DNA from: a virus
Taxonomy: Duplodnaviria > Heunggongvirae > Uroviricota > Caudoviricetes
Direction: 5' to 3' (one strand)
DNA: 43,613 nucleotides
IMG/VR virus record: IMGVR_UViG_2654587728_000013
Span: 1-43,613 of that record
The notes beneath the pieces were generated by a model, which saw only the letters and a program-made list of their open reading frames with translations, did no database searches and had not been told where the DNA came from. The translations under genes and the position numbers were made by a program. Below are positions 5,033 through 36,650 of this stretch, piece after piece (position 1 is the stretch's first letter; the number at the start of each line of letters is the position of its first letter).

Positions 5033-5188
5033 ATTACCATTTTGGTAATACCTGGAGATGCAGGAAAACCACGAAGTGGTGGTTTCTGCCTGAGCGATGC
5101 GCTCATGTATTACCTTTTGGGTAATAATCAGATCAAAAAGTGATTGTGTCAATAGGTATGACGAGAAAAAAATTACCGTTTTGGTAAT
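5033..5188. promoter_or_regulatory. OL-like operator triplet: ATTACC-N5-GGTAAT at 5033..5049, 5109..5125, 5172..5188
   Basis: Three perfect 17-bp palindromes spaced 76 and 63 bp; minus-strand TTGACA (5147-5152) 17 bp from GATTAT overlapping site 2. Confidence 0.6.
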
Positions 5189-5245
5189 TGCGTGAGGCGC
5201 GAGCTTACCGCCATCGGGCAGGTAAAGCGTCAGAATGGCGGGGGA

Positions 5246-5842
5246 TTACTTGCTTTTGTTCTGCTCAAACACGAAGTTAATGAATGAGGTGATCTTGTTT
5301 TTCTCTTCCTGAGGCAGAGCTGCATACAACCTGTGGTCGTAGTCGATAACACCAGGAGCGCCGACGGGAATAATCATCTCGTATGCTTCATGCCCGAACG
5401 CGCGCGCCAGGGAGGAAAGAACGCCGATAGTTGTGCTGACTTCCGCTTTCATAATCCGGTTAACTGTGGCCGGGCCAATACCAGCTGCTACAGCAACTTT
5501 CTTTTCTGATGTCATTTCCGTGTTCTTTCTCATCCAGGCATTGAGCGTGGCTGCAGCCTGCTTCTCTACAGTCCATTCGCCATCATCAGTGGCCGGAATA
5601 AAGATATCAGCCTGTACCGCGTCCAGTTCGTGATCGACATCAAGCCAGAACTTTTCTTTGCGCGCTGCTTCCTCAATGATACGCGCTGCATTTGGTCCGA
5701 TGTTTTTGATGCCAGTGCACCACCTGTTGACCAGGTTCTGCGAACGCTTCACACGTTCGGCAAAGCGCAACTGGGTATCATCGAAATCCCGGCGAATGAT
5801 TTCGTTAAGGTTTTTGCGTCTTATGTCATAAATACTTTTCAT
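5246..5842 (-). CDS. prophage repressor, tandem XRE-type HTH, no LexA-like peptidase domain
   Basis: 198 aa; two HTH-like segments (QLRFAERVKRSQNLVNRW... and EKKVAVAAGIGPATVNRIMKAE...); flanked by operator triplets; divergent from Cro-like gene. Confidence 0.6.
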   Translation of the reverse strand: MKSIYDIRRKNLNEIIRRDFDDTQLRFAERVKRSQNLVNRWCTGIKNIGPNAARIIEEAARKEKFWLDVDHELDAVQADIFIPATDDGEWTVEKQAAATLNAWMRKNTEMTSEKKVAVAAGIGPATVNRIMKAEVSTTIGVLSSLARAFGHEAYEMIIPVGAPGVIDYDHRLYAALPQEEKNKITSFINFVFEQNKSK

Positions 5843-5895
5843 AGCTATTGTATTTGTCCATTTAATGTTACCTAACTGACTAAATTTAAATGAAT

Positions 5896-5959
5896 ATTAC
5901 CATAAAGGTAAAGTTACCATAACGGTAATAATCATTGATTTTTTCACCAGAAAGGTAAT
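5896..5959. promoter_or_regulatory. OR-like operator triplet: 5896..5912, 5913..5929 (TTACC-N5-GGTAA) and 5943..5959 (TCACC variant)
   Basis: Divergent intergenic region between repressor and Cro-like gene; plus-strand TTGATT (5935-5940) then TAATAA/ATAATT about 17 bp downstream overlapping third site. Confidence 0.6.
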
Positions 5960-8232: not shown

Positions 8233-8249
8233 ATTACCAAAAGGGTAAT
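8233..8249. promoter_or_regulatory. operator copy ATTACC-AAAAG-GGTAAT
   Basis: Perfect TTACC-N5-GGTAA in intergenic region upstream of resolvase gene. Confidence 0.5.
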
Positions 8250-8294
8250 AAAATATGCGCATTGCTATTGAAATTAACCCATTTGTGGTTTTAA

Positions 8295-8311
8295 ATTACC
8301 TGAGAGGTAAA
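8295..8311. promoter_or_regulatory. operator copy ATTACC-TGAGA-GGTAAA overlapping RBS of resolvase gene
   Basis: Perfect TTACC-N5-GGTAA ending 3 bp before ATG at 8314. Confidence 0.5.
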
Positions 8312-10720: not shown

Positions 10721-10737
10721 ATTACCAAAACGGTAAT
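10721..10737. promoter_or_regulatory. operator copy ATTACC-AAAAC-GGTAAT upstream of terminase genes
   Basis: Perfect TTACC-N5-GGTAA between terminator and small terminase start. Confidence 0.5.
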
Positions 10738-10756
10738 TATTACTTCGGTGGTAACA

Positions 10757-31047: not shown

Positions 31048-31419
31048 ATGAACAGAATTATATTAATGACTCTTCTTATTTTTTTTGTTGGAAAAGCTTC
31101 TGCTGATACTACATCACCTTTAATGATTCAGCCTAAAAATGGAGAAACATTGGAGGATTCTAAAAAGCATACAATGGAATACTTTGGATGCATAAAAGGG
31201 CAGGCTGTAAAGTATGCCAAGACAGGAGAAAGTGTTGATTCCATATCAAAAGCTTCGGTTGTGTCATGCGAGTCATATATACCAATGATCGCCGAGTCGA
31301 ATATATATTATTTAAACTCTTCGCAAGATGGTAAGCGGCAATTTACAGAAAGGCTAAAATCTGATGGTGAGAGATTAGCCACAAAATTTGCCATGGATGA
31401 GAAGATTAAAAATAAATAG
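31048..31419 (+). CDS. small secreted protein (AT-rich moron)
   Basis: 123 aa; signal peptide MNRIILMTLLIFFVGKASA; visibly low GC (estimated ~35%, not computed). Confidence 0.55.
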   Translation: MNRIILMTLLIFFVGKASADTTSPLMIQPKNGETLEDSKKHTMEYFGCIKGQAVKYAKTGESVDSISKASVVSCESYIPMIAESNIYYLNSSQDGKRQFTERLKSDGERLATKFAMDEKIKNK

Positions 31420-31427
31420 GTGACCAC

Positions 31428-31724
31428 ATGCAAGCTATTGGTTTCATTGTTTACATAGTTGTTGGTCTTTTTCAGTTGGCTGCGATCATGGCTGGTCTTG
31501 AATCGTGGTGGGGACTGCACTGGATAGTGGCTGCACCCATTGCTTTCATCGTTAGTTATATCCCGTTGGTCGGTTCCATTGTTGGAATGGTTGGCGCTGT
31601 CGACGTATGGCGTTGGGAATGGTGGCAGGCAGGGCTTCTTTTCTTTGGCGGCCTGGTTTTTGCTATTGCGTGCGGGGGGATGTCTTCGTTCTTCGAATGG
31701 CTATCCTTCAGGAAAAGAGCGTGA
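31428..31724 (+). CDS. small three-TM membrane protein
   Basis: 98 aa; three hydrophobic helices; RBS AGGTGA; stop overlaps GTGACATGTCAC palindrome. Confidence 0.55.
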   Translation: MQAIGFIVYIVVGLFQLAAIMAGLESWWGLHWIVAAPIAFIVSYIPLVGSIVGMVGAVDVWRWEWWQAGLLFFGGLVFAIACGGMSSFFEWLSFRKRA

Positions 31725-31771: not shown

Positions 31772-32236
31772 TTACTCTTCTTCATCGCTACCAAAGAGCG
31801 GGTTATCGTTGTAGTCAGAGAGAAGAAACGGTATGTGCTCCCTCGAATACCCAACCACAACTATTTCATCTCCGTCTTTCGCATAGTGAATGCATTCATT
31901 TGAATGCTTCCCACCAGGGTTGAATTTTAAGTCAACAGTATGATTTCTGAAGGTGTTAGGATACCACGTGGGACCACAATGATAGTGCCAGTAATTTTCC
32001 TGCTCATAATTGTCTGAACCGGGAATTTTATCATAGTTGTCGTCAACCCAAGATGGCTTGTTTTTACCTACAAGCGTTCTGCCATTGGCAACATCTTCCA
32101 TAAAATTTTGGATGGTTTCCAACTCCAGGTCCGTGAGATGTGGTCCATCTACTGCGAAAGGTTCGTTACTGGCACCGGTTATAAAGCCAAATGCAACCCT
32201 AGGCTTAAACTTCAAGTTACACCCCTGACAGGTCAA
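31772..32236 (-). CDS. hypothetical protein with acidic C-terminal tail
   Basis: 154 aa; only start-like codon at 5' end is TTG immediately after in-frame TAA of upstream small ORF; start uncertain. Confidence 0.4.
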   Translation of the reverse strand: MTCQGCNLKFKPRVAFGFITGASNEPFAVDGPHLTDLELETIQNFMEDVANGRTLVGKNKPSWVDDNYDKIPGSDNYEQENYWHYHCGPTWYPNTFRNHTVDLKFNPGGKHSNECIHYAKDGDEIVVVGYSREHIPFLLSDYNDNPLFGSDEEE

Positions 32237-32404
32237 TTATTTTGCGCGAAATGCCGCCTTGAAGTCGTTGAAAGAAGTCCCTGACTGATAAGTCATGTCC
32301 TGGTCGCGATCTTTGTTAGCGCGACCAAGCATTACTTTACCAATGGCATCCCAGCATTGCTTGGCTTGCTCATTTTGTTGAGTCCGATTTTTCAACGCTG
32401 TCAT
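32237..32404 (-). CDS. small ORF (55 aa) in same frame as downstream 154-aa ORF
   Basis: Found by manual translation (below ORF-track size cut-off); strong RBS AGGAGA; ends at TAA followed in frame by TTG of next ORF. Confidence 0.35.
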   Translation of the reverse strand: MTALKNRTQQNEQAKQCWDAIGKVMLGRANKDRDQDMTYQSGTSFNDFKAAFRAK

Positions 32405-32418
32405 AGTGCGTCTCCTTC

Positions 32419-32435
32419 TTTACCTTTGAGGTAAT
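32419..32435. promoter_or_regulatory. operator copy TTTACC-TTTGA-GGTAAT over RBS of small ORF
   Basis: Perfect TTACC-N5-GGTAA. Confidence 0.5.
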
Positions 32436-32499
32436 ATTACGCGAATCTACGTCACACCGCCAATGATTATTTTATAGGCGCATCCCTGCGCCATCGTCA

Positions 32500-33198
32500 T
32501 CAGAACTTACCAGTCATGCTGTTGATGTACTGCGCATGAGTCTGGATATCGCGCAGGCATTTACTGGCGCCGACAATGTAGCTCATCATGGCCGCGAACT
32601 CTGCTACAGCACCTTCAACATCATGCCCGTCTGCGTCCAGTTGGCGTAGCAGGCTCATCATCAAAGAGTGCTCTGTCAGACCAAGAACACCTTCAGGTGA
32701 ATGGATGTGTTCACGGTAGTTTGGCTTGAGTGGGGCGCTGTATTCCTGTTTCTCTTCCGTCTTCATCGCTTCCAGAATGGCGGGCATGAAGCTGGCTACA
32801 ACCTTTTGCGCTTTGTCTGCCGGTGATAATTCTTCACGAACGTATCGACCAGTGCGGCGGATTTGCGGAAGAACGTCGCCAGTTACCCATTTGCGGAAAC
32901 GATAGGGGATAGTACCAGGAGTTACCGCATCGCGGCAGCGCAGGATCAGAGTGTAGAGGCCGGATTCAGAGATGATGAGGGTATTAGGGTTCCCTCGTTT
33001 TCCGTCGGTTAAAGCGACGGTATTCTTTTCGTCGTCATCCAATTTAAGCAGAGCATCACGGTTGTTTGATATACCAAGAGCATTACATACATCTAACGCA
33101 ATAAACCATGGCTCGCCGTCGATGATGATTGCACGAATATCGGCTTGCGATTCGAAAGAAAAAACTGAAGTATTTTTTTGAGTTGTCATAGTGATCAC
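32500..33198 (-). CDS. Bro-N domain antirepressor
   Basis: 232 aa; N-terminal FSFESQADIRAIIIDGEPWFIALDVCNALGI matches Bro-N; distinct C-terminal domain. Confidence 0.7.
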   Translation of the reverse strand: MITMTTQKNTSVFSFESQADIRAIIIDGEPWFIALDVCNALGISNNRDALLKLDDDEKNTVALTDGKRGNPNTLIISESGLYTLILRCRDAVTPGTIPYRFRKWVTGDVLPQIRRTGRYVREELSPADKAQKVVASFMPAILEAMKTEEKQEYSAPLKPNYREHIHSPEGVLGLTEHSLMMSLLRQLDADGHDVEGAVAEFAAMMSYIVGASKCLRDIQTHAQYINSMTGKF

Positions 33199-33457
33199 CT
33201 TTTAGTCTGGTTAATCACCACCGGAGGTTCCAATCTCGGAGGTGGTGAACTGTGCAGGGTTGGAACTACCGGCTAAAAGGACCCGGCGCACCTTTCGGTG
33301 CCCCCACACAGCCCACCATAATGCGAATGTGGCCGTGCTTAACGCATAAAAAAACCGCTTGCGCGGTGAATGCGCCTTTTAGTATCCGGGGTTCCAATCC
33401 CGGCACTGGATTTTGCCAGTGCCTGATCACTATGGCACAAGTATTTTGCGTTGTAAA

Positions 33458-33474
33458 TTTACCGTAAAGGTAAT
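33458..33474. promoter_or_regulatory. operator copy TTTACC-GTAAA-GGTAAT in antirepressor promoter region
   Basis: Perfect TTACC-N5-GGTAA. Confidence 0.5.
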
Positions 33475-33504
33475 AATAAACGCATTATGTAGGTTATTTC
33501 AACC

Positions 33505-33765
33505 TTATGTGGTTTGCTTGCGTAACTGTTCCGCACAGTAATCGAGATGCGTTTGCAGATCCTGCATGGTCATTTGAGAGCTTGTTACGTAATTCACAAG
33601 GGCAACCAATTCAGCCAGCGGCCCGTCAACGTTGAAGCCGTCTTTATCGAGTTCCCGCAGCAACTTCATCAGATGCGAGTCCTCCACCAGGGATCTAACG
33701 CCTACCGGCGTGTGTATTCTTTCCTCAAATCCTTCTTCCAGCGGATGGTGATACTGCCGTTGCAT
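33505..33765 (-). CDS. stand-alone paralog of the antirepressor C-terminal domain
   Basis: Aligns by eye to C-terminus of 32500..33198 (HLMKLLRELDKDGFNVDGPLAEL vs SLMMSLLRQLDADGHDVEGAVAEF); start at MQRQYHH with GGAG RBS. Confidence 0.5.
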   Translation of the reverse strand: MQRQYHHPLEEGFEERIHTPVGVRSLVEDSHLMKLLRELDKDGFNVDGPLAELVALVNYVTSSQMTMQDLQTHLDYCAEQLRKQTT

Positions 33766-33840
33766 CTCTTCTTCTCCATGCAATCACTGTATAAACATAC
33801 AGTAGCAGAAGATTTACTGACTATCCAGCACGAAATGTAA

Positions 33841-33857
33841 ATTACCTGTAAGGTAAT
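33841..33857. promoter_or_regulatory. operator copy ATTACC-TGTAA-GGTAAT between antirepressor paralog and tailspike
   Basis: Perfect TTACC-N5-GGTAA in divergent intergenic region. Confidence 0.5.
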
Positions 33858-33962: not shown

Positions 33963-36650
33963 ATGACGGTTTCAACCGAAGTTGACCACAATGACTACAC
34001 AGGTAACGGGGTCACGACATCATTCCCATATACCTTCCGAATTTTTCATAAGTCTGATCTGGTGGTGCGGGTTGTTGACCTGAGCGAAAACATCACTGAA
34101 TTAACACTGGACACTGACTACACGGTGACAGGTGCTGGCGGATATACTGGCGGGAATGTTGTTTTATCGTCGCCTCTTGCCAATGGTTATCAGATTTCGA
34201 TATCCAGAGAGTTACCGGTTACCCAGGAGACTGATCTCAGAAATCAGGGTAAGTTTTTCGCAGAAGTGCATGAGGATGCTTTTGATAAGTTGACCATGCT
34301 GATACAGCAGGCAATTAGTTGGCTGCGCCTTTCTTTACGTAAGCCGTCTTTTATTGCAAATTATTATGATGCCCTGGGTAACTACATACGAAATCTTCGT
34401 GACCCGTCACGACCACAGGATGCAGCTACAAAAAATTACGTTGACGGAGTTGCTGAAGGTAACACTTCTTATGCAGATTCTCTATTTAAAAGAACCTTAA
34501 GAGTTCCTGAGGATTATGTTGACCAGATACCATCAAATGCTGATAGATCAAATAAAATACTTGCTTTTGATTCTGGCGGTAAACCTATTGCTGTTTTACC
34601 TGAATCTGGTTCTGCTTCAGATGTTTTAATTGAGCTGGCAAATAACGGTGATAAAAAAATTGGTAGCTCATATGGAGGCACAGTTTATAGCGACTACCAA
34701 CGATCAATTTTTGTCAAAAAGGCAGAATTTTCTTCAGGTTTAACCATTTCATCAAAGAATGATGCTTGTCTTTATGCTGATGGGCTATGGTACGTATGGA
34801 CTGGAGCATTACCTCACACCATCTCGTCTGGTGAATTTCCGGATGTCGAAACAACTAAATGGGCATGCGTTGGACTTCTGAATGGTTACCGAATCAATGA
34901 AGTAAAAAATTTCATTGAGAAACCCGGCATCACAAATGATTCACCAGCAATTAAACTTGCTATTTACTCGTTAGTGCGTCTTGGCTACGGAGAGTTGATT
35001 GTTACAGCTAACTCAAAAGTAAACATAATCACAGAGGTTGCAATACCATTTGCCATTGATGGAATCCCTGTATCCATAGGAATAAGAGGTGAAGGTGTAA
35101 TAAACTCTCTGGGGAATGTCCCAGAGATAAGGTTTGGACTTAACTCAAGGGGGATTGTGTTTGGTAATGTTTGCTATTCATTAGACCGCCTGGTGTTATC
35201 ACAATATGTAGGATCAGAAAATACAGATGTGATAAGCAAAACATCCAACACCATTACTCTGGTATCAAATCCATTTCAGGCTAATGGTGGAAATATAATT
35301 ACATGGCCTTTGACTGACAACAACACCGCAGGTGTTCCAGTAAGTAACTTCTGTCAATTCAGCACTAACTCTGGGGCTTTCTTTGCTACAGGACTTGTTA
35401 ATAACTCTGATGGGAGTTGTACATTAACCGGAGTTACTGGGTGCAATGGAACCCCTTCGTCAGAGATATCGAACGTCACAAAAGTTGTCAGATTTACATC
35501 AAGAGCGCATCAGTTACCAGATGACACCTATCCGCGCACAGCAGCATGCATCAGTTTAGATGTCATAGAGAACCCTACTATAAGCAACTTATGGGTTCTG
35601 CAAACATATCGAACTTTCTCATTCAAAGATGGAAATGGAGGCGGAGAAGGTTCAGGTCTGGGTCATTACGGATTGTGGAATGACATCATAGTCGATGGGA
35701 CCAAAGAATTTGTAGGCGGTACAGATTTGAGTGGCGGCAGCATTCAAGGAATTGAAGGCGGACAGTTTGTTAATATCCATCTGTTTGGTACTAAGTATGG
35801 TTTTCGTGGCCGAAGAATGAAGTCATGTATGTTCTCAAACTGCACACACTATGCTTTTACAGGCGGTAAAATATTTGACATTCTGGAGTTTGATGGTTTT
35901 TCATGGGGAGGCGGTTCTATTGGTTGGAACTCAGGTTCTGGGTACATCAGCAATGTTATGGATTGTGTAAATGGTGATAACATTACATTCACCGGTGTTA
36001 AGTTTGGTAGGCACCACACTACAGAATCAGGACCGGCTTTTAAATGCTCATCTCGTTTTACTAATTTTTCATTTACCGGAAACAGCCATGAATCAGTGAG
36101 CGAAGGTGGATTCACTGATATTGGTTTCTTTGATGTAAATGAATTTTCTAGATCAAGTATTGGCGAAAACGCAATTGGGTTTAATGGTAATGGGCAACCA
36201 ACACTAACGATGTCTACTTCTGCACCTGATATTGCAAGATTCGCAGGTACTAGATTTAATCAGCCTGTTCTCACAAATGCCCCTGCTGGCATTTATGATA
36301 ACGAACATACTTCAGGTAAAGGAACATTCTATTCTACATCAGACTATCGTGACTCAGGTAAGATTTTAATAATACCTGATATTAACTCGGCCTCACCATG
36401 GCCTGATGATTCTAGAAATATAATAAAATTTGGCGGTACTTTATCTCCTGGTAAAACTCTAATGCTTCCAGAGCTAACTATATTGAATGGGACGCTTCTT
36501 AGGAGCATGGTTTTACTAGATCTTTCATCAGTAAATTTCAATGGTCAGACTATCGGTATTTATAATGGACCTACACTTATAACTACATTGTCATCACAAG
36601 GAATATATGAGTTTCTTAGTGTAGGATCTACTTATTACAGGATAAAATAA
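33963..36650 (+). CDS. tailspike / receptor-binding protein (mosaic)
   Basis: 895 aa from ATG with GGAGAAAA RBS (ORF track start 33921); N-terminal region of normal GC, C-terminal ~2.2 kb AT-rich and Gly/Asn/Ser/Thr-rich. Confidence 0.7.
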   Translation: MTVSTEVDHNDYTGNGVTTSFPYTFRIFHKSDLVVRVVDLSENITELTLDTDYTVTGAGGYTGGNVVLSSPLANGYQISISRELPVTQETDLRNQGKFFAEVHEDAFDKLTMLIQQAISWLRLSLRKPSFIANYYDALGNYIRNLRDPSRPQDAATKNYVDGVAEGNTSYADSLFKRTLRVPEDYVDQIPSNADRSNKILAFDSGGKPIAVLPESGSASDVLIELANNGDKKIGSSYGGTVYSDYQRSIFVKKAEFSSGLTISSKNDACLYADGLWYVWTGALPHTISSGEFPDVETTKWACVGLLNGYRINEVKNFIEKPGITNDSPAIKLAIYSLVRLGYGELIVTANSKVNIITEVAIPFAIDGIPVSIGIRGEGVINSLGNVPEIRFGLNSRGIVFGNVCYSLDRLVLSQYVGSENTDVISKTSNTITLVSNPFQANGGNIITWPLTDNNTAGVPVSNFCQFSTNSGAFFATGLVNNSDGSCTLTGVTGCNGTPSSEISNVTKVVRFTSRAHQLPDDTYPRTAACISLDVIENPTISNLWVLQTYRTFSFKDGNGGGEGSGLGHYGLWNDIIVDGTKEFVGGTDLSGGSIQGIEGGQFVNIHLFGTKYGFRGRRMKSCMFSNCTHYAFTGGKIFDILEFDGFSWGGGSIGWNSGSGYISNVMDCVNGDNITFTGVKFGRHHTTESGPAFKCSSRFTNFSFTGNSHESVSEGGFTDIGFFDVNEFSRSSIGENAIGFNGNGQPTLTMSTSAPDIARFAGTRFNQPVLTNAPAGIYDNEHTSGKGTFYSTSDYRDSGKILIIPDINSASPWPDDSRNIIKFGGTLSPGKTLMLPELTILNGTLLRSMVLLDLSSVNFNGQTIGIYNGPTLITTLSSQGIYEFLSVGSTYYRIK

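Follow-up and report, generated by a model that had tools for sequence, protein, structure and literature searches.

The antirepressor of the phages P1 and P7 is encoded in the immI operon, the arrangement of which, c4-icd-ant, was reportedly described by Citron and Schuster in 1990 and 1992. In this operon, the two loops of a processed antisense RNA, a' and b', are complementary to the upstream boxes a1/b1 as well as to the downstream boxes a2/b2 at the ribosome-binding site; specificity variants exist, and the main repressor controls the operon promoter. The c4 RNA of P1 is cut from a longer precursor by RNase P, such precursors being substrates of this enzyme. Dedicated controls, including a small antisense RNA, are also found in P22 immI (mnt-arc-ant with the sar antisense RNA), where the antirepressor lies beside the tailspike gene of a temperate podovirus. 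For the Salmonella phage SPC32H, an Ant-Rep system is said to have been characterised by Kim and Ryu in 2013 and by Kim et al. in 2016, with the PDB entries 5D50 and 5D4Z.

In P1, c4 represses the synthesis of Ant (PMC8546580). In the isrK-orf45-anrP module of Gifsy-1, the short IsrK RNA binds Hfq and acts in trans as an activator of antirepressor translation (Hershko-Shalev et al. 2016, PMC4825925). Annotations of the APSE phages of Hamiltonella show isrK, C4 and a Bro-N gene together with the positions of a' and b' (Rouil et al. 2020, PMC7313666).

The DNA considered here (the window, the whole stretch of 43.6 kb) is an epsilon15/SPC32H-like temperate phage of the Uetakevirus type. Adjoining its tailspike gene are two tandem antirepressor units on the minus strand, and it is highly probable that an SOS-triggered Ant unit and a c4/IsrK-controlled large-Ant unit together account for the whole region. 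Every part matches something described before, so that the locus is real, tidy and ordinary. The features pointed out by an earlier note on this DNA are all present in the sequence but are read from the minus strand. The parts of P22 immI are unrelated to those of the window, where Mnt and Arc are absent. In P22, moreover, sar is transcribed as a true cis-antisense RNA, and Ant is another protein altogether; the region showed no detectable homology to P22 immI.

The small antirepressor and its predicted control sites

The two genes and the sites upstream of the first are as follows.

33505..33765, minus strand: small ant gene, encoding a stand-alone antirepressor of 86 aa (ATG at 33765, Shine-Dalgarno sequence GGAG at 33777-33774)
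32500..33189, minus strand: large ant gene, 229 aa (ATG at 33189), with Bro-N at residues 18-108 and an Ant-like C-domain at residues of about 146-224
33785..33804, minus strand: predicted LexA (SOS) box TACTGTATGTTTATACAGTG, with the small ant start codon about 20 nt downstream
33841..33857, unstranded: predicted Rep operator, an ATTACC-N5-GGTAAT palindrome upstream of small ant

The small open reading frame had been thought to resemble only the C-terminal domain of the adjacent antirepressor, to have its own ribosome-binding site and so possibly to be a modulator rather than a remnant. The resemblance is borne out by pairwise BLASTP of the two open reading frames (92 and 232 aa), which share 41% identity over 79 aa (E = 6e-22), and the GGAG sequence supplies the ribosome-binding site. 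That the gene is not a remnant agrees with about 170 homologues in Enterobacterales, almost all of them 85-86 aa long. The idea of a truncated copy or mere modulator of its neighbour, on the other hand, has to be given up: the product is identical at 86/86 residues to chain E of PDB 5D50, "Anti-repressor protein" (E = 5.7e-55), and by its sequence is the stand-alone, Rep-binding Ant antirepressor of SPC32H, the structure of which is already solved. The orthologue in SPC32H is annotated as ant. As no Pfam or NCBIfam family was found for the small open reading frame, with only a sub-threshold match to DUF724, its identity was settled by the PDB sequence search.

In SPC32H, Ant binds directly to the repressor Rep, an Ant tetramer binding two Rep dimers and breaking up the DNA-binding Rep tetramer (PMC9638917). 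The genome that encodes the small Ant also contains the cognate Rep repressor and its operators. The rep gene at 5246-5842 gives a full-length match to 5D50_A, Repressor (6 of 198 residues differ, E = 4e-128), with 97.5% identity to SPC32H rep by tblastn and about 97-98% overall. The sequence TTACC-N5-GGTAA occurs in 12 exact copies in the window, compared with 0.77 expected even when one mismatch is allowed.

An oligomeric protein that shares a domain at 41% identity with the product of an adjacent gene could act mainly on that neighbour, for example by forming mixed oligomers through the common domain, rather than as an effector of its own. Ant is a tetramer (PMC9638917), and the small and large ant genes are adjacent in many phages. 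This is nonetheless very improbable, as the protein is identical to the Ant that was crystallised in complex with Rep, and the small Ant occurs without a large Ant in SPC32H, epsilon15 and SPN1S. Moreover, the small Ants and the C-domains of the large Ants form two old, separate lineages that are about 40% identical in every pairing. An effector role of its own is the preferred reading for the 86-aa protein, which may have a modulating side-activity in addition.

The motif CTGT-N8-ACAG occurs only once in the window, and this occurrence is the near-consensus LexA box. The box is kept in all four aligned phages with more variable flanks, and the two substitutions in phiV10 are both outside the CTGT/ACAG core. 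SOS/LexA control of this Ant family is attributed to Kim & Ryu 2013 in the review PMC7380047. The operator at 33841..33857 is kept in SPC32H, epsilon15 and phiV10, and the epsilon15 record carries an annotated "repressor" binding site at the homologous place. A consensus scan gave no convincing -10 element for the small ant promoter. With a LexA box and a Rep operator in its promoter region, the first unit would constitute an SOS-triggered induction switch, an assignment founded on identity to characterised parts.

In SPC32H, ant occupies the same place adjoining the tailspike gene, the small Ant is 100% identical, Rep is about 97-98% identical, and the LexA box and Rep operator are kept. Unlike the window, SPC32H and epsilon15 are without the whole c4/large-Ant module, and their homology to the window ends right after the ant stop codon.

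The IsrK-type RNA, the c4 RNA and their boxes

The region between the two genes contains the following features, given in the direction of transcription.

33473..33502, minus strand: putative promoter-like site TTGAAA-18-TATTAT from a consensus scan, abutting the operator
33459..33473, unstranded: predicted Rep operator TTACCGTAAAGGTAA, directly upstream of the -35 element of the isrK/c4 promoter
33429..33457, minus strand: predicted promoter of the isrK-c4-ant operon, TTTACA-17-(TG)CATAGT, from a consensus scan and kept in relatives
33422->33348, minus strand: IsrK-type short RNA (76.1 bits with Rfam RF01394, gathering score 50, over all 77 model positions)
33403-33422, minus strand: first hairpin of isrK, covarying at 5 of 7 pairs
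33397-33391, minus strand: b1 box UUGGAAC, in a hairpin loop inside isrK
33382-33375, minus strand: a1 box CUAAAAGG, inside isrK
33367-33354, minus strand: isrK terminator stem ACCGCGCAAGCGGT, followed by a run of seven U
33323->33238, minus strand: c4 antisense RNA (77.1 bits with Rfam RF01695, gathering score 45, over all 87 model positions)
33280-33273, minus strand: a' loop of c4, CCUUUUAG
33266-33260, minus strand: b' of c4, GUUCCAA
33215..33248, minus strand: b2 hairpin, whose loop holds the b2 box UUGGAAC (33233-33227)
33205-33198, minus strand: a2 box CUAAAAGG, the exact 8-nt complement of a'
33201-33195, minus strand: Shine-Dalgarno sequence AAGGUGA of large ant, overlapped by a2 and ending 5 nt before the ATG at 33189

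The spacer of the earlier note exists but measures 315 bp when the likely start of large ant is used, not 306 bp. Its two hairpins are also present: the first has the stem TCACCACC (33215-33222) / GGTGGTGA (33241-33248) and is the b2 hairpin, whereas the second, with a CCGG..CCGG stem at 33386-33403, extends to 33403 and not to 33394. Their loops carry the 10-mer GGTTCCAATC, which occurs exactly twice in the window (33226-33235 and 33390-33399) against 0.07 copies expected from shuffles, none of 100 shuffles reaching two. On the low-coordinate side of each copy lies CCTTTTAGT (33198-33206 and 33375-33383). As the minus strand is transcribed, the RNA reads GAUUGGAACC and ACUAAAAGG. The GGTTCCAATC loops correspond to the b boxes targeted by c4 and the preceding TTTTAGT to the a boxes, and the 18-bp palindrome CACTGGATTTTGCCAGTG, found at 33404-33421 as described, is the first hairpin of isrK. 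The structure of the spacer is genuine, but it consists of known c4/IsrK target boxes and hairpins and not of an unknown structure.

The spacing of the TTTACA/CATAGT promoter places the +1 at about 33422, the first base of the Rfam isrK match. The operator at 33459..33473 is kept in epsilon15-like and Klebsiella relatives and is absent from lambdoid and APSE copies of the module; equivalents of the promoter-like site at 33473..33502 exist in ZX5 and KpST11. The model RF03163 (c4-a1b1) reaches 42.1 bits at 33435->33383 (E = 3.9e-9), narrowly under its gathering score of 46.7; the bases of this near-miss pass the overlapping isrK model. A 14-nt inverted repeat between the -10/GATC region of the isrK promoter and the start region of large ant was considered as an extra cis element and rejected, being weak in ZX5, absent in KpST11 and probably due to chance.

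The complementarity of the boxes is exact, over 8 nt for a'/a1/a2 and over 7 nt for b'/b1/b2, with the b2/a2 set preceding large ant; there is no further b..a pair in the window that could be another c4 target. The c4 segment has a predicted fold of -45.8 kcal/mol (z = -4.7) and a tRNA-like closing stem with an ACCA-type 3' end, of which the 3' strand doubles as the 5' arm UCACCACC of the b2 hairpin.

Comparison with related loci showed that isrK and C4 are both present in 16 of 16. Pairing was compared by explicit helix-length tables and column counts. RNAduplex energies of c4 cores with cognate and non-cognate targets had been tried and were dropped because of poor separation, which is explained by palindromic CCGG stems that pair with everything. 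Both target sets can pair with c4 in each of the 17 loci, a' forming helices of 8 nt or more and b' helices of 7 nt, and one a' helix (8 nt or more) falls shortly before the start codon of the next gene or spans it. There are 12 variants of a' and 5 of b' among these loci, and the boxes change together; non-cognate combinations of c4 and target pair over about 5 nt on average. In the alignment of 17 c4 sequences, paired cells make up 96.7% and compensatory changes occur at 17 pairs, which was matched by none of 500 shuffles. Column-wise covariation of the boxes was likewise reached by 0/500 shuffles and collapses once the partners are slid. The outer stem of the b2 hairpin is 97.7% paired with 2 compensatory pairs, and the pairing of b' with b2 is about 97% paired, all five variable pairs changing on both sides. 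That the spacer is structured, as the earlier note had it, and also conserved is supported by the Rfam matches as well as by covariation in relatives.

These data also bear on the suggestion that no regulatory RNA is involved and that remnants of a tRNA-like kind, debris of an attachment site or simple terminators account for the hairpins. GGTTCCAATCC does resemble a tRNA T-loop, and CACCACC/GGTGGTG resembles an acceptor stem. A search with ARAGORN for a tRNA or tmRNA gene at the hairpins finds none in the window, two Rfam families score above their gathering scores, and three-way covariation of boxes is not expected of debris, which leaves this explanation with a negligible probability. The tRNA-like look of the hairpins fits the role of c4 precursors as RNase P substrates.

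The window shares with Gifsy-1 the succession, on one strand, of isrK, a c4-like segment and an antirepressor gene. A scan of Gifsy-1 gave isrK with 79 bits, then C4 with 69 bits, then anrP, so that its "orf45/STnc1160" segment scores as a C4-family RNA. The two loci have the same order and spacing of parts: promoter, IsrK b1/a1 hairpins, leaky terminator, C4-family RNA, b2/a2 at the Shine-Dalgarno sequence, and antirepressor. The boxes of Gifsy-1 differ (b' ACGCCAA, which is also the phiV10 type, and a' UCGGUGAU), the promoter of the window has an epsilon15-type Rep operator, unlike Gifsy-1, the C-domain of the antirepressor is different, and no link to antQ is evident in the window. In the Gifsy-1 model orf45 is translationally coupled, whereas the corresponding frame of the window (AUG 33319) has 17 codons, stops inside c4 and is uncoupled to ant; a second frame (GTG 33309) ends at 33211. 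There is no icd- or orf45-like coupled open reading frame in the window that would bridge c4 and ant, and with the 17-codon frame ending in c4, control would have to act directly on the ant Shine-Dalgarno sequence.

P1/P7 immI and the window have in common a c4-type RNA of the Rfam C4 family with two sets of target boxes, the existence of specificity variants and, as predicted for the window, a promoter under the main repressor and repressed antirepressor synthesis. In contrast to P1/P7, where icd is translationally coupled to ant, the window has no icd gene and its a2 overlaps the Shine-Dalgarno sequence of ant itself. An intrinsic terminator after a1b1 would furthermore yield a separate short RNA, unlike in P1/P7. 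The antirepressor is a single Bro-N/Ant-C protein instead of Ant1/Ant2, and the host phage is a podovirus, while P1 is a plasmid prophage. The APSE phages share the order of isrK, C4 and Bro-N with the window, and matching a1/b1 and a2/b2 boxes could be recovered in APSE-7; their b' is GUCUCAA, however, their Bro-N protein is without an Ant-like C-domain, and no small ant gene lies upstream.

In the minimum-energy fold of the read-through RNA (z = -5.25), a1b1 pairs with a'b' in cis and leaves a2 and the Shine-Dalgarno sequence open. The same cis helix is predicted for Gifsy-1 and agrees with "helix b-I" of the IsrK paper (PMC4825925). This long-range helix would suit a purely cis-acting leader switch in which the c4-like segment is never released in trans and the short IsrK is an activator that opens an inactive mRNA leader. 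Such a switch is close to the explanation given for anrP by alternative read-through structures A/B with short IsrK in trans (PMC4825925), and the strand shared by the c4 stem and the b2 hairpin, with both pairings covarying, is what would be expected of alternative folds. However, the predicted cis fold does not sequester the ant Shine-Dalgarno sequence or a2, and the covariation of a2/b2 with a'/b' in 17 of 17 loci would be unneeded by a switch centred on a1b1. In addition, a stable processed RNA of about 80 nt (STnc1160) arises from the Gifsy-1 segment (PMC4825925), and the homologous P1 RNA acts in trans (PMC8546580). A switch acting purely in cis is therefore considered unlikely, and the preferred reading is that c4 would repress large ant by pairing with a2 and b2. 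The assignment of this second unit is built on Rfam membership and covariation, and its mechanism would follow those of P1/P7 and Gifsy-1.

The large antirepressor

The large protein combines a Bro-N domain (PF02498, residues 18-108, 73.8 bits against a gathering threshold of 25.6, E = 1.8e-20) with a C-domain in which residues 148-222 match residues 3-77 of Ant (5D50_E, E = 3e-16). PHROG anti-repressor families match as well, PHROG 450 with E = 1.3e-33, and the exact protein is already called as a gene in GCA_001265355.1. Shared with Ant are the stretch IH-P-GV..L.E-S..M-LLR-LD-DG..V-G..AE and the motif D-QTH..Y. It is the large protein that is the derived form, in which Bro-N, or another N-domain in phiv142-3, has been joined to an Ant-like C-domain.

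As its C-domain is a diverged copy of the Rep-binding Ant (about 41% identity), the large Ant is most likely a second antirepressor for Rep-family repressors, although its binding to Rep is predicted from the 41% identity only. The Bro-N protein might instead be directed at the repressors of other co-resident prophages or act by Bro-N DNA binding, with the Ant-like domain serving only for oligomerisation. In Stx, APSE and Gifsy phages, the Bro-N proteins encoded after c4 end in C-termini of unrelated sequence, trans-acting antirepressors that cross-induce Salmonella prophages are known (Lemire 2011, cited in PMC7380047), and identity to Ant is only 41%. A target other than the resident Rep is still quite unlikely: the Ant-like C-domain is present only in phages that also encode a Rep-family repressor, the two co-occurring in the same roughly 35 phage records, and it is retained where the N-domain is exchanged (phiv142-3) or lost (KpST512). 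The sequence motifs shared with Ant argue for the same conclusion, that Rep-family repressors are the target.

A candidate induction circuit

Transcription from the Rep-operated promoter would start at about 33422, and most transcripts would stop at the terminator to give an IsrK-type RNA of roughly 75 nt with the b1/a1 boxes. In read-through transcripts, c4 would be followed by the mRNA of the large antirepressor, with b2/a2 flanking and overlapping its Shine-Dalgarno sequence. The a'/b' loops of c4 may pair with a2/b2 and block ribosome binding, so that with c4 in excess the large Ant would not be made. These c4 loops could equally be bound by the b1/a1 boxes, in cis within the read-through RNA or in trans by means of the short RNA, and b1/a1 would then act as a decoy that frees a2 for translation, as shown for IsrK/anrP in Gifsy-1. 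The large Ant would then be released only once the controls by Rep and by c4 have both been lifted. If Rep fully represses the operon promoter in the lysogen, little c4 would be made, which counts against the proposed role of c4 in that state.

The window, ZX5 and a Klebsiella relative all lack a terminator-like site between the small ant stop codon and the isrK terminator. This implies that SOS-induced ant transcripts would have an IsrK-type 3' UTR that includes the b1/a1 decoy. It is possible, if rather doubtful, that the two antirepressor units are wired in series as a feed-forward induction switch, with the a/b boxes as an exchangeable RNA "barcode". If so, a single LexA-cleavage event would make Ant, which removes Rep from the c4-operon promoter, and would at the same time deliver a c4-soaking RNA that licenses translation of the second antirepressor with its Ant-like domain. 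The barcode would decide which related co-resident or incoming phages check each other's second antirepressor.

As the Gifsy-1 orf45/STnc1160 segment belongs to the C4 family, the P1 repression model and the IsrK activation model may be regarded as two halves of one circuit, a link that was not found in the IsrK paper (PMC4825925) or in the other literature cited. For the annotation of the window, "hypothetical protein / structured spacer" is replaced by an Ant of known structure, an IsrK-type RNA, a c4 RNA with four target boxes and a Bro-N/Ant-C antirepressor. The circuit could be studied conveniently in epsilon15-like phages, since solved structures exist for Rep and Ant and natural variants of the boxes offer ready specificity swaps. 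The window has its a type in common with phiV10 and its b type with phiP27 and YpM39.

A known antirepressor and its repressor

The region between and around the two antirepressor genes can be accounted for by elements already described, namely an established antirepressor and a member of the c4/IsrK antisense family guarding a Bro-N/Ant-C antirepressor. It holds no new kind of element, the c4/IsrK copy itself is a new family member, and the locus is useful for annotation and might serve as an experimental system.

Read from the ATG at 33765, the small ORF (33505-33765, minus strand) encodes 86 residues and matches PDB 5D50 chain E ("Anti-repressor protein") at 86/86 of them. The crystallised protein is Ant from Salmonella phage SPC32H, in whose genome the orthologue is annotated ant. 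The partner repressor is also in the window, as ORF 5246-5842, a full-length match to 5D50 chain A ("Repressor") in which 6 of 198 residues differ. Rep is described as binding DNA as a tetramer, which is broken apart when one Ant tetramer binds two Rep dimers (PMC9638917), and a review describes production of SPC32H-type Ant as SOS-dependent (PMC7380047). Two sites upstream of small ant are kept in the window, SPC32H, epsilon15 and phiV10:

33804-33785, minus strand: near-consensus LexA box TACTGTATGTTTATACAGTG
upstream of small ant: palindrome ATTACCTTACAGGTAAT, at a position matching a repressor site annotated in the epsilon15 record

The motif TTACC-N5-GGTAA can be assigned from sequence as the Rep operator, because it occurs in 12 exact copies in the window (<1 expected) which cluster near rep and the early genes. 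The operator clusters flank rep at 5034-5958 and recur at 8234-8310, 10722-10754 and 14252; several early-region genes are preceded by such palindromes, and the clusters likely map the Rep regulon.

The earlier note had likened the small ORF to the C-terminal domain of the neighbouring antirepressor and had raised the possibility that it is a modulator and not a remnant. Pairwise protein alignment bears out the likeness (41% identity over 79 residues, E = 6e-22). The identity to 5D50, the partner Rep, the conserved upstream sites and the uniform size of the ~170 homologues (Salmonella, Citrobacter, Escherichia, Klebsiella, Yersinia and others; nearly all 85-86 aa) all argue that it is a conserved stand-alone gene and no fragment. 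No -10 element could be placed for the small ant promoter. Between the window and E. coli relatives, Rep identity falls to 42% but small Ant identity holds at ~87%.

The isrK/c4 module and the large ant gene

The two ant genes and all signals in the spacer are minus-strand features, so the motifs pointed out earlier are to be read as GAUUGGAACC and ACUAAAAGG. Across the 43.6 kb of the window, the repeated GGTTCCAATC indeed has exactly two copies, one at 33226 and one at 33390 (0.07 expected from shuffles), both in hairpin loops and each with an accompanying CCTTTTAGT (33198, 33375). These "hairpins preceded by TTTTAGT" are the b1/a1 and b2/a2 target sets of a c4 RNA, and the palindrome CACTGGATTTTGCCAGTG, present at 33404-33421, is hairpin 1 of isrK. 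The signals are as follows, on the minus strand:

33502->33473: second promoter-like site TTGAAA-18-TATTAT, on the other flank of the next operator
33459-33473: predicted Rep operator, abutting the -35 of the isrK/c4 promoter
33457->33429: predicted promoter TTTACA-17-(TG)CATAGT, predicted transcription start coinciding with the 5' base of the isrK match
33422->33348: isrK (Rfam), 76.1 bits, gathering score 50
33397-33391 and 33382-33375: b1 and a1, inside isrK, exact complements of b' and a'
end of isrK match: predicted intrinsic terminator ACCGCGCAAGCGGT + U7
33323->33238: C4 antisense RNA (Rfam), 77.1 bits, gathering score 45
33280-33273: a' CCUUUUAG, loop of the second c4 hairpin in the predicted fold
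33266-33260: b' GUUCCAA, single-stranded after a' in the predicted fold
33233-33227 and 33205-33198: b2 and a2, before large ant, exact complements of b' and a'

The c4-a1b1 family scores 42.1 bits over 33435-33383, narrowly under its gathering score of 46.7. In the predicted c4 fold a long closing stem bears two hairpins, the first with a tetraloop. No further b..a target pair exists elsewhere in the window. Box a2 overlaps the Shine-Dalgarno sequence (SD) AAGGUGA of large ant, which ends 5 nt before ATG 33189. The b2 hairpin and the c4 closing stem should be alternative structures in the unprocessed transcript, because UCACCACC serves as the 5' arm of the former and the 3' strand of the latter. 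An inverted repeat of 14 nt (93% complementary) has one arm at 33184-33197, at the large ant start codon, and the other at 33424-33437, at the -10/GATC of the isrK promoter. Both arms include a GATC site; since KpST11 lacks the repeat and ZX5 has only a weak form, it is probably due to chance.

The large protein (229 aa from ATG 33189) has a Bro-N domain at residues 18-108 (Pfam E = 1.8e-20) and a C-domain matching the Ant of 5D50 (E = 3e-16). Small Ants and these C-domains are old lineages maintained separately, because the C-domains are 57-69% identical to one another among relatives and ~40% identical to every small Ant from any phage. The same C-domain is joined to a different N-domain in phiv142-3 (L017 1222-1878), kept without Bro-N in KpST512 (L009 1435-1890, 151 aa), and in phiV10 (L003 1754-2338, 194 aa) the protein is truncated within the Ant-like domain. 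The same phages carry both the Ant domain, present in 35 phage records, and the Rep family, present in 36; proteins downstream of c4 in the Stx-type (phi296, YYZ-2008), IdasGreatGrand and APSE-7 loci lack the Ant-like domain. We infer that the C-domain is a repressor-binding module, which would make the large protein a second antirepressor for Rep-family repressors. Just past its stop codon, the hairpin GGCGCAGGGATGCGCC (32478-32493, minus strand) is not a canonical terminator, since UAUAAAAUAAU follows instead of a U-run.

Conservation and covariation in relatives

The module is matched in 363 phage records, and 16 loci from epsilon15-like, Klebsiella, lambdoid/Stx, Yersinia, Hafnia and APSE phages were compared with the window (17 in all). 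The structure conservation that the earlier note had proposed to check is found throughout. Both isrK and C4 exceed gathering scores in 16/16 related loci, ~25 nt apart. Box by box, helices of at least 8 nt join a' to a1 and to a2, and helices of 7 nt join b' to b1 and to b2, in 17/17 loci, across 12 a' loops and five b' heptamers (GUUCCAA, ACGCCAA, AGACCAA, GUCUCAA, GUGCUAA); non-cognate combinations average ~5 nt. Column-wise counts on the alignment agree with this.

Pairing and compensatory change by alignment column
isrK + c4 stems: 96.7% of cells paired; 17 compensatory pairs, reached in 0/500 shuffles; slid partners 37-46% paired
b'-b1: 100% paired; both sides changed in 5/7 pairs
b'-b2: ~97% paired; 5/5 variable pairs changed on both sides
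b2 hairpin outer stem: 97.7% paired; 2 compensatory pairs

In a type the window agrees with ZX5, phiV10 and TL-2011b, its nearest relatives, and in b type (GUUCCAA) with phiP27 and a Yersinia phage. Against the ACGCCAA of the closest relatives (L003, L005, L007), concerted 3-4-nt changes fall at b' 33260-33266, b2 33227-33233 and b1 33391-33397, with a specificity unchanged. Because the b boxes changed in concert and the a boxes did not, the module resembles a "barcode" that has recombined or co-evolved.

A proposed control circuit and its relatives

Sequence comparison establishes or strongly supports the identity of Ant and Rep, the family membership of isrK and c4, the complementarity and covariation of the four boxes, and the position of a2 on the SD. 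In P1, Ant synthesis is summarised as being repressed by c4 (PMC8546580). By analogy with P1/P7 and Gifsy-1, c4 would pair with b2 and a2 and block translation of large Ant, and b1/a1, as a short terminated RNA or in cis, would compete for the same c4 loops and relieve the block. Fold prediction for the read-through transcript gives a cis a1b1:a'b' helix that leaves a2 and the SD open (z = -5.25), corresponding to "helix b-I" of the Gifsy-1 IsrK paper (PMC4825925). From the small ant stop codon to the isrK terminator, nothing resembling a terminator is seen in the window (33348-33505), ZX5 (L005 904-1062) or KpST11 (L010 880-1040), so SOS-induced ant mRNA may have the a1b1 decoy in its 3' UTR, and the two units would then be coupled. 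Transcripts started at ant or at the TTGAAA-18-TATTAT site would end in IsrK.

SPC32H and epsilon15, whose homology to the window ends exactly at the ant stop codon, have the small Ant only, whereas the window, phiV10, ZX5, Tyrion, phiv142-3, PH444 and Klebsiella phages have the extra c4/large-Ant module. In Gifsy-1 (L020), isrK is followed by an Rfam C4 match (69 bits) and anrP with the same spacing as in the window, and its own matching a and b boxes adjoin the anrP SD. On this score, spacing and set of boxes, orf45/STnc1160 of the IsrK paper (34131-34316, minus strand) is a c4-family RNA; that paper compares the locus with P4 CI/SeqA, and a search of its text gave no hit for "phage P1" (PMC4825925). 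Unlike P1/P7 and Gifsy-1, the window lacks an ant-coupled ORF of the icd or orf45 type, and its operon promoter bears a predicted Rep operator.

Downstream of large ant, the -10 of a promoter-like site is covered by a third Rep-type operator, TTACCTTTGAGGTAA (32420-32434). Two minus-strand ORFs follow it, one of 55 aa (32237-32404, phrog_8607) and one of 147/154 aa (31772-32236, phrog_5954), neither with a Pfam/NCBIfam match. The stretch 31772-32434 looks like a Rep-controlled two-gene cassette. Between the gene of an 848-aa virion protein and the minus-strand cluster, 31048-31724 (plus strand) holds a 123-aa ORF with a signal-peptide-like N-terminus and no family match and a 98-aa ORF (phrog_3075) whose hydrophobic product is apparently a membrane protein, where SPC32H has a single 46-aa membrane protein.
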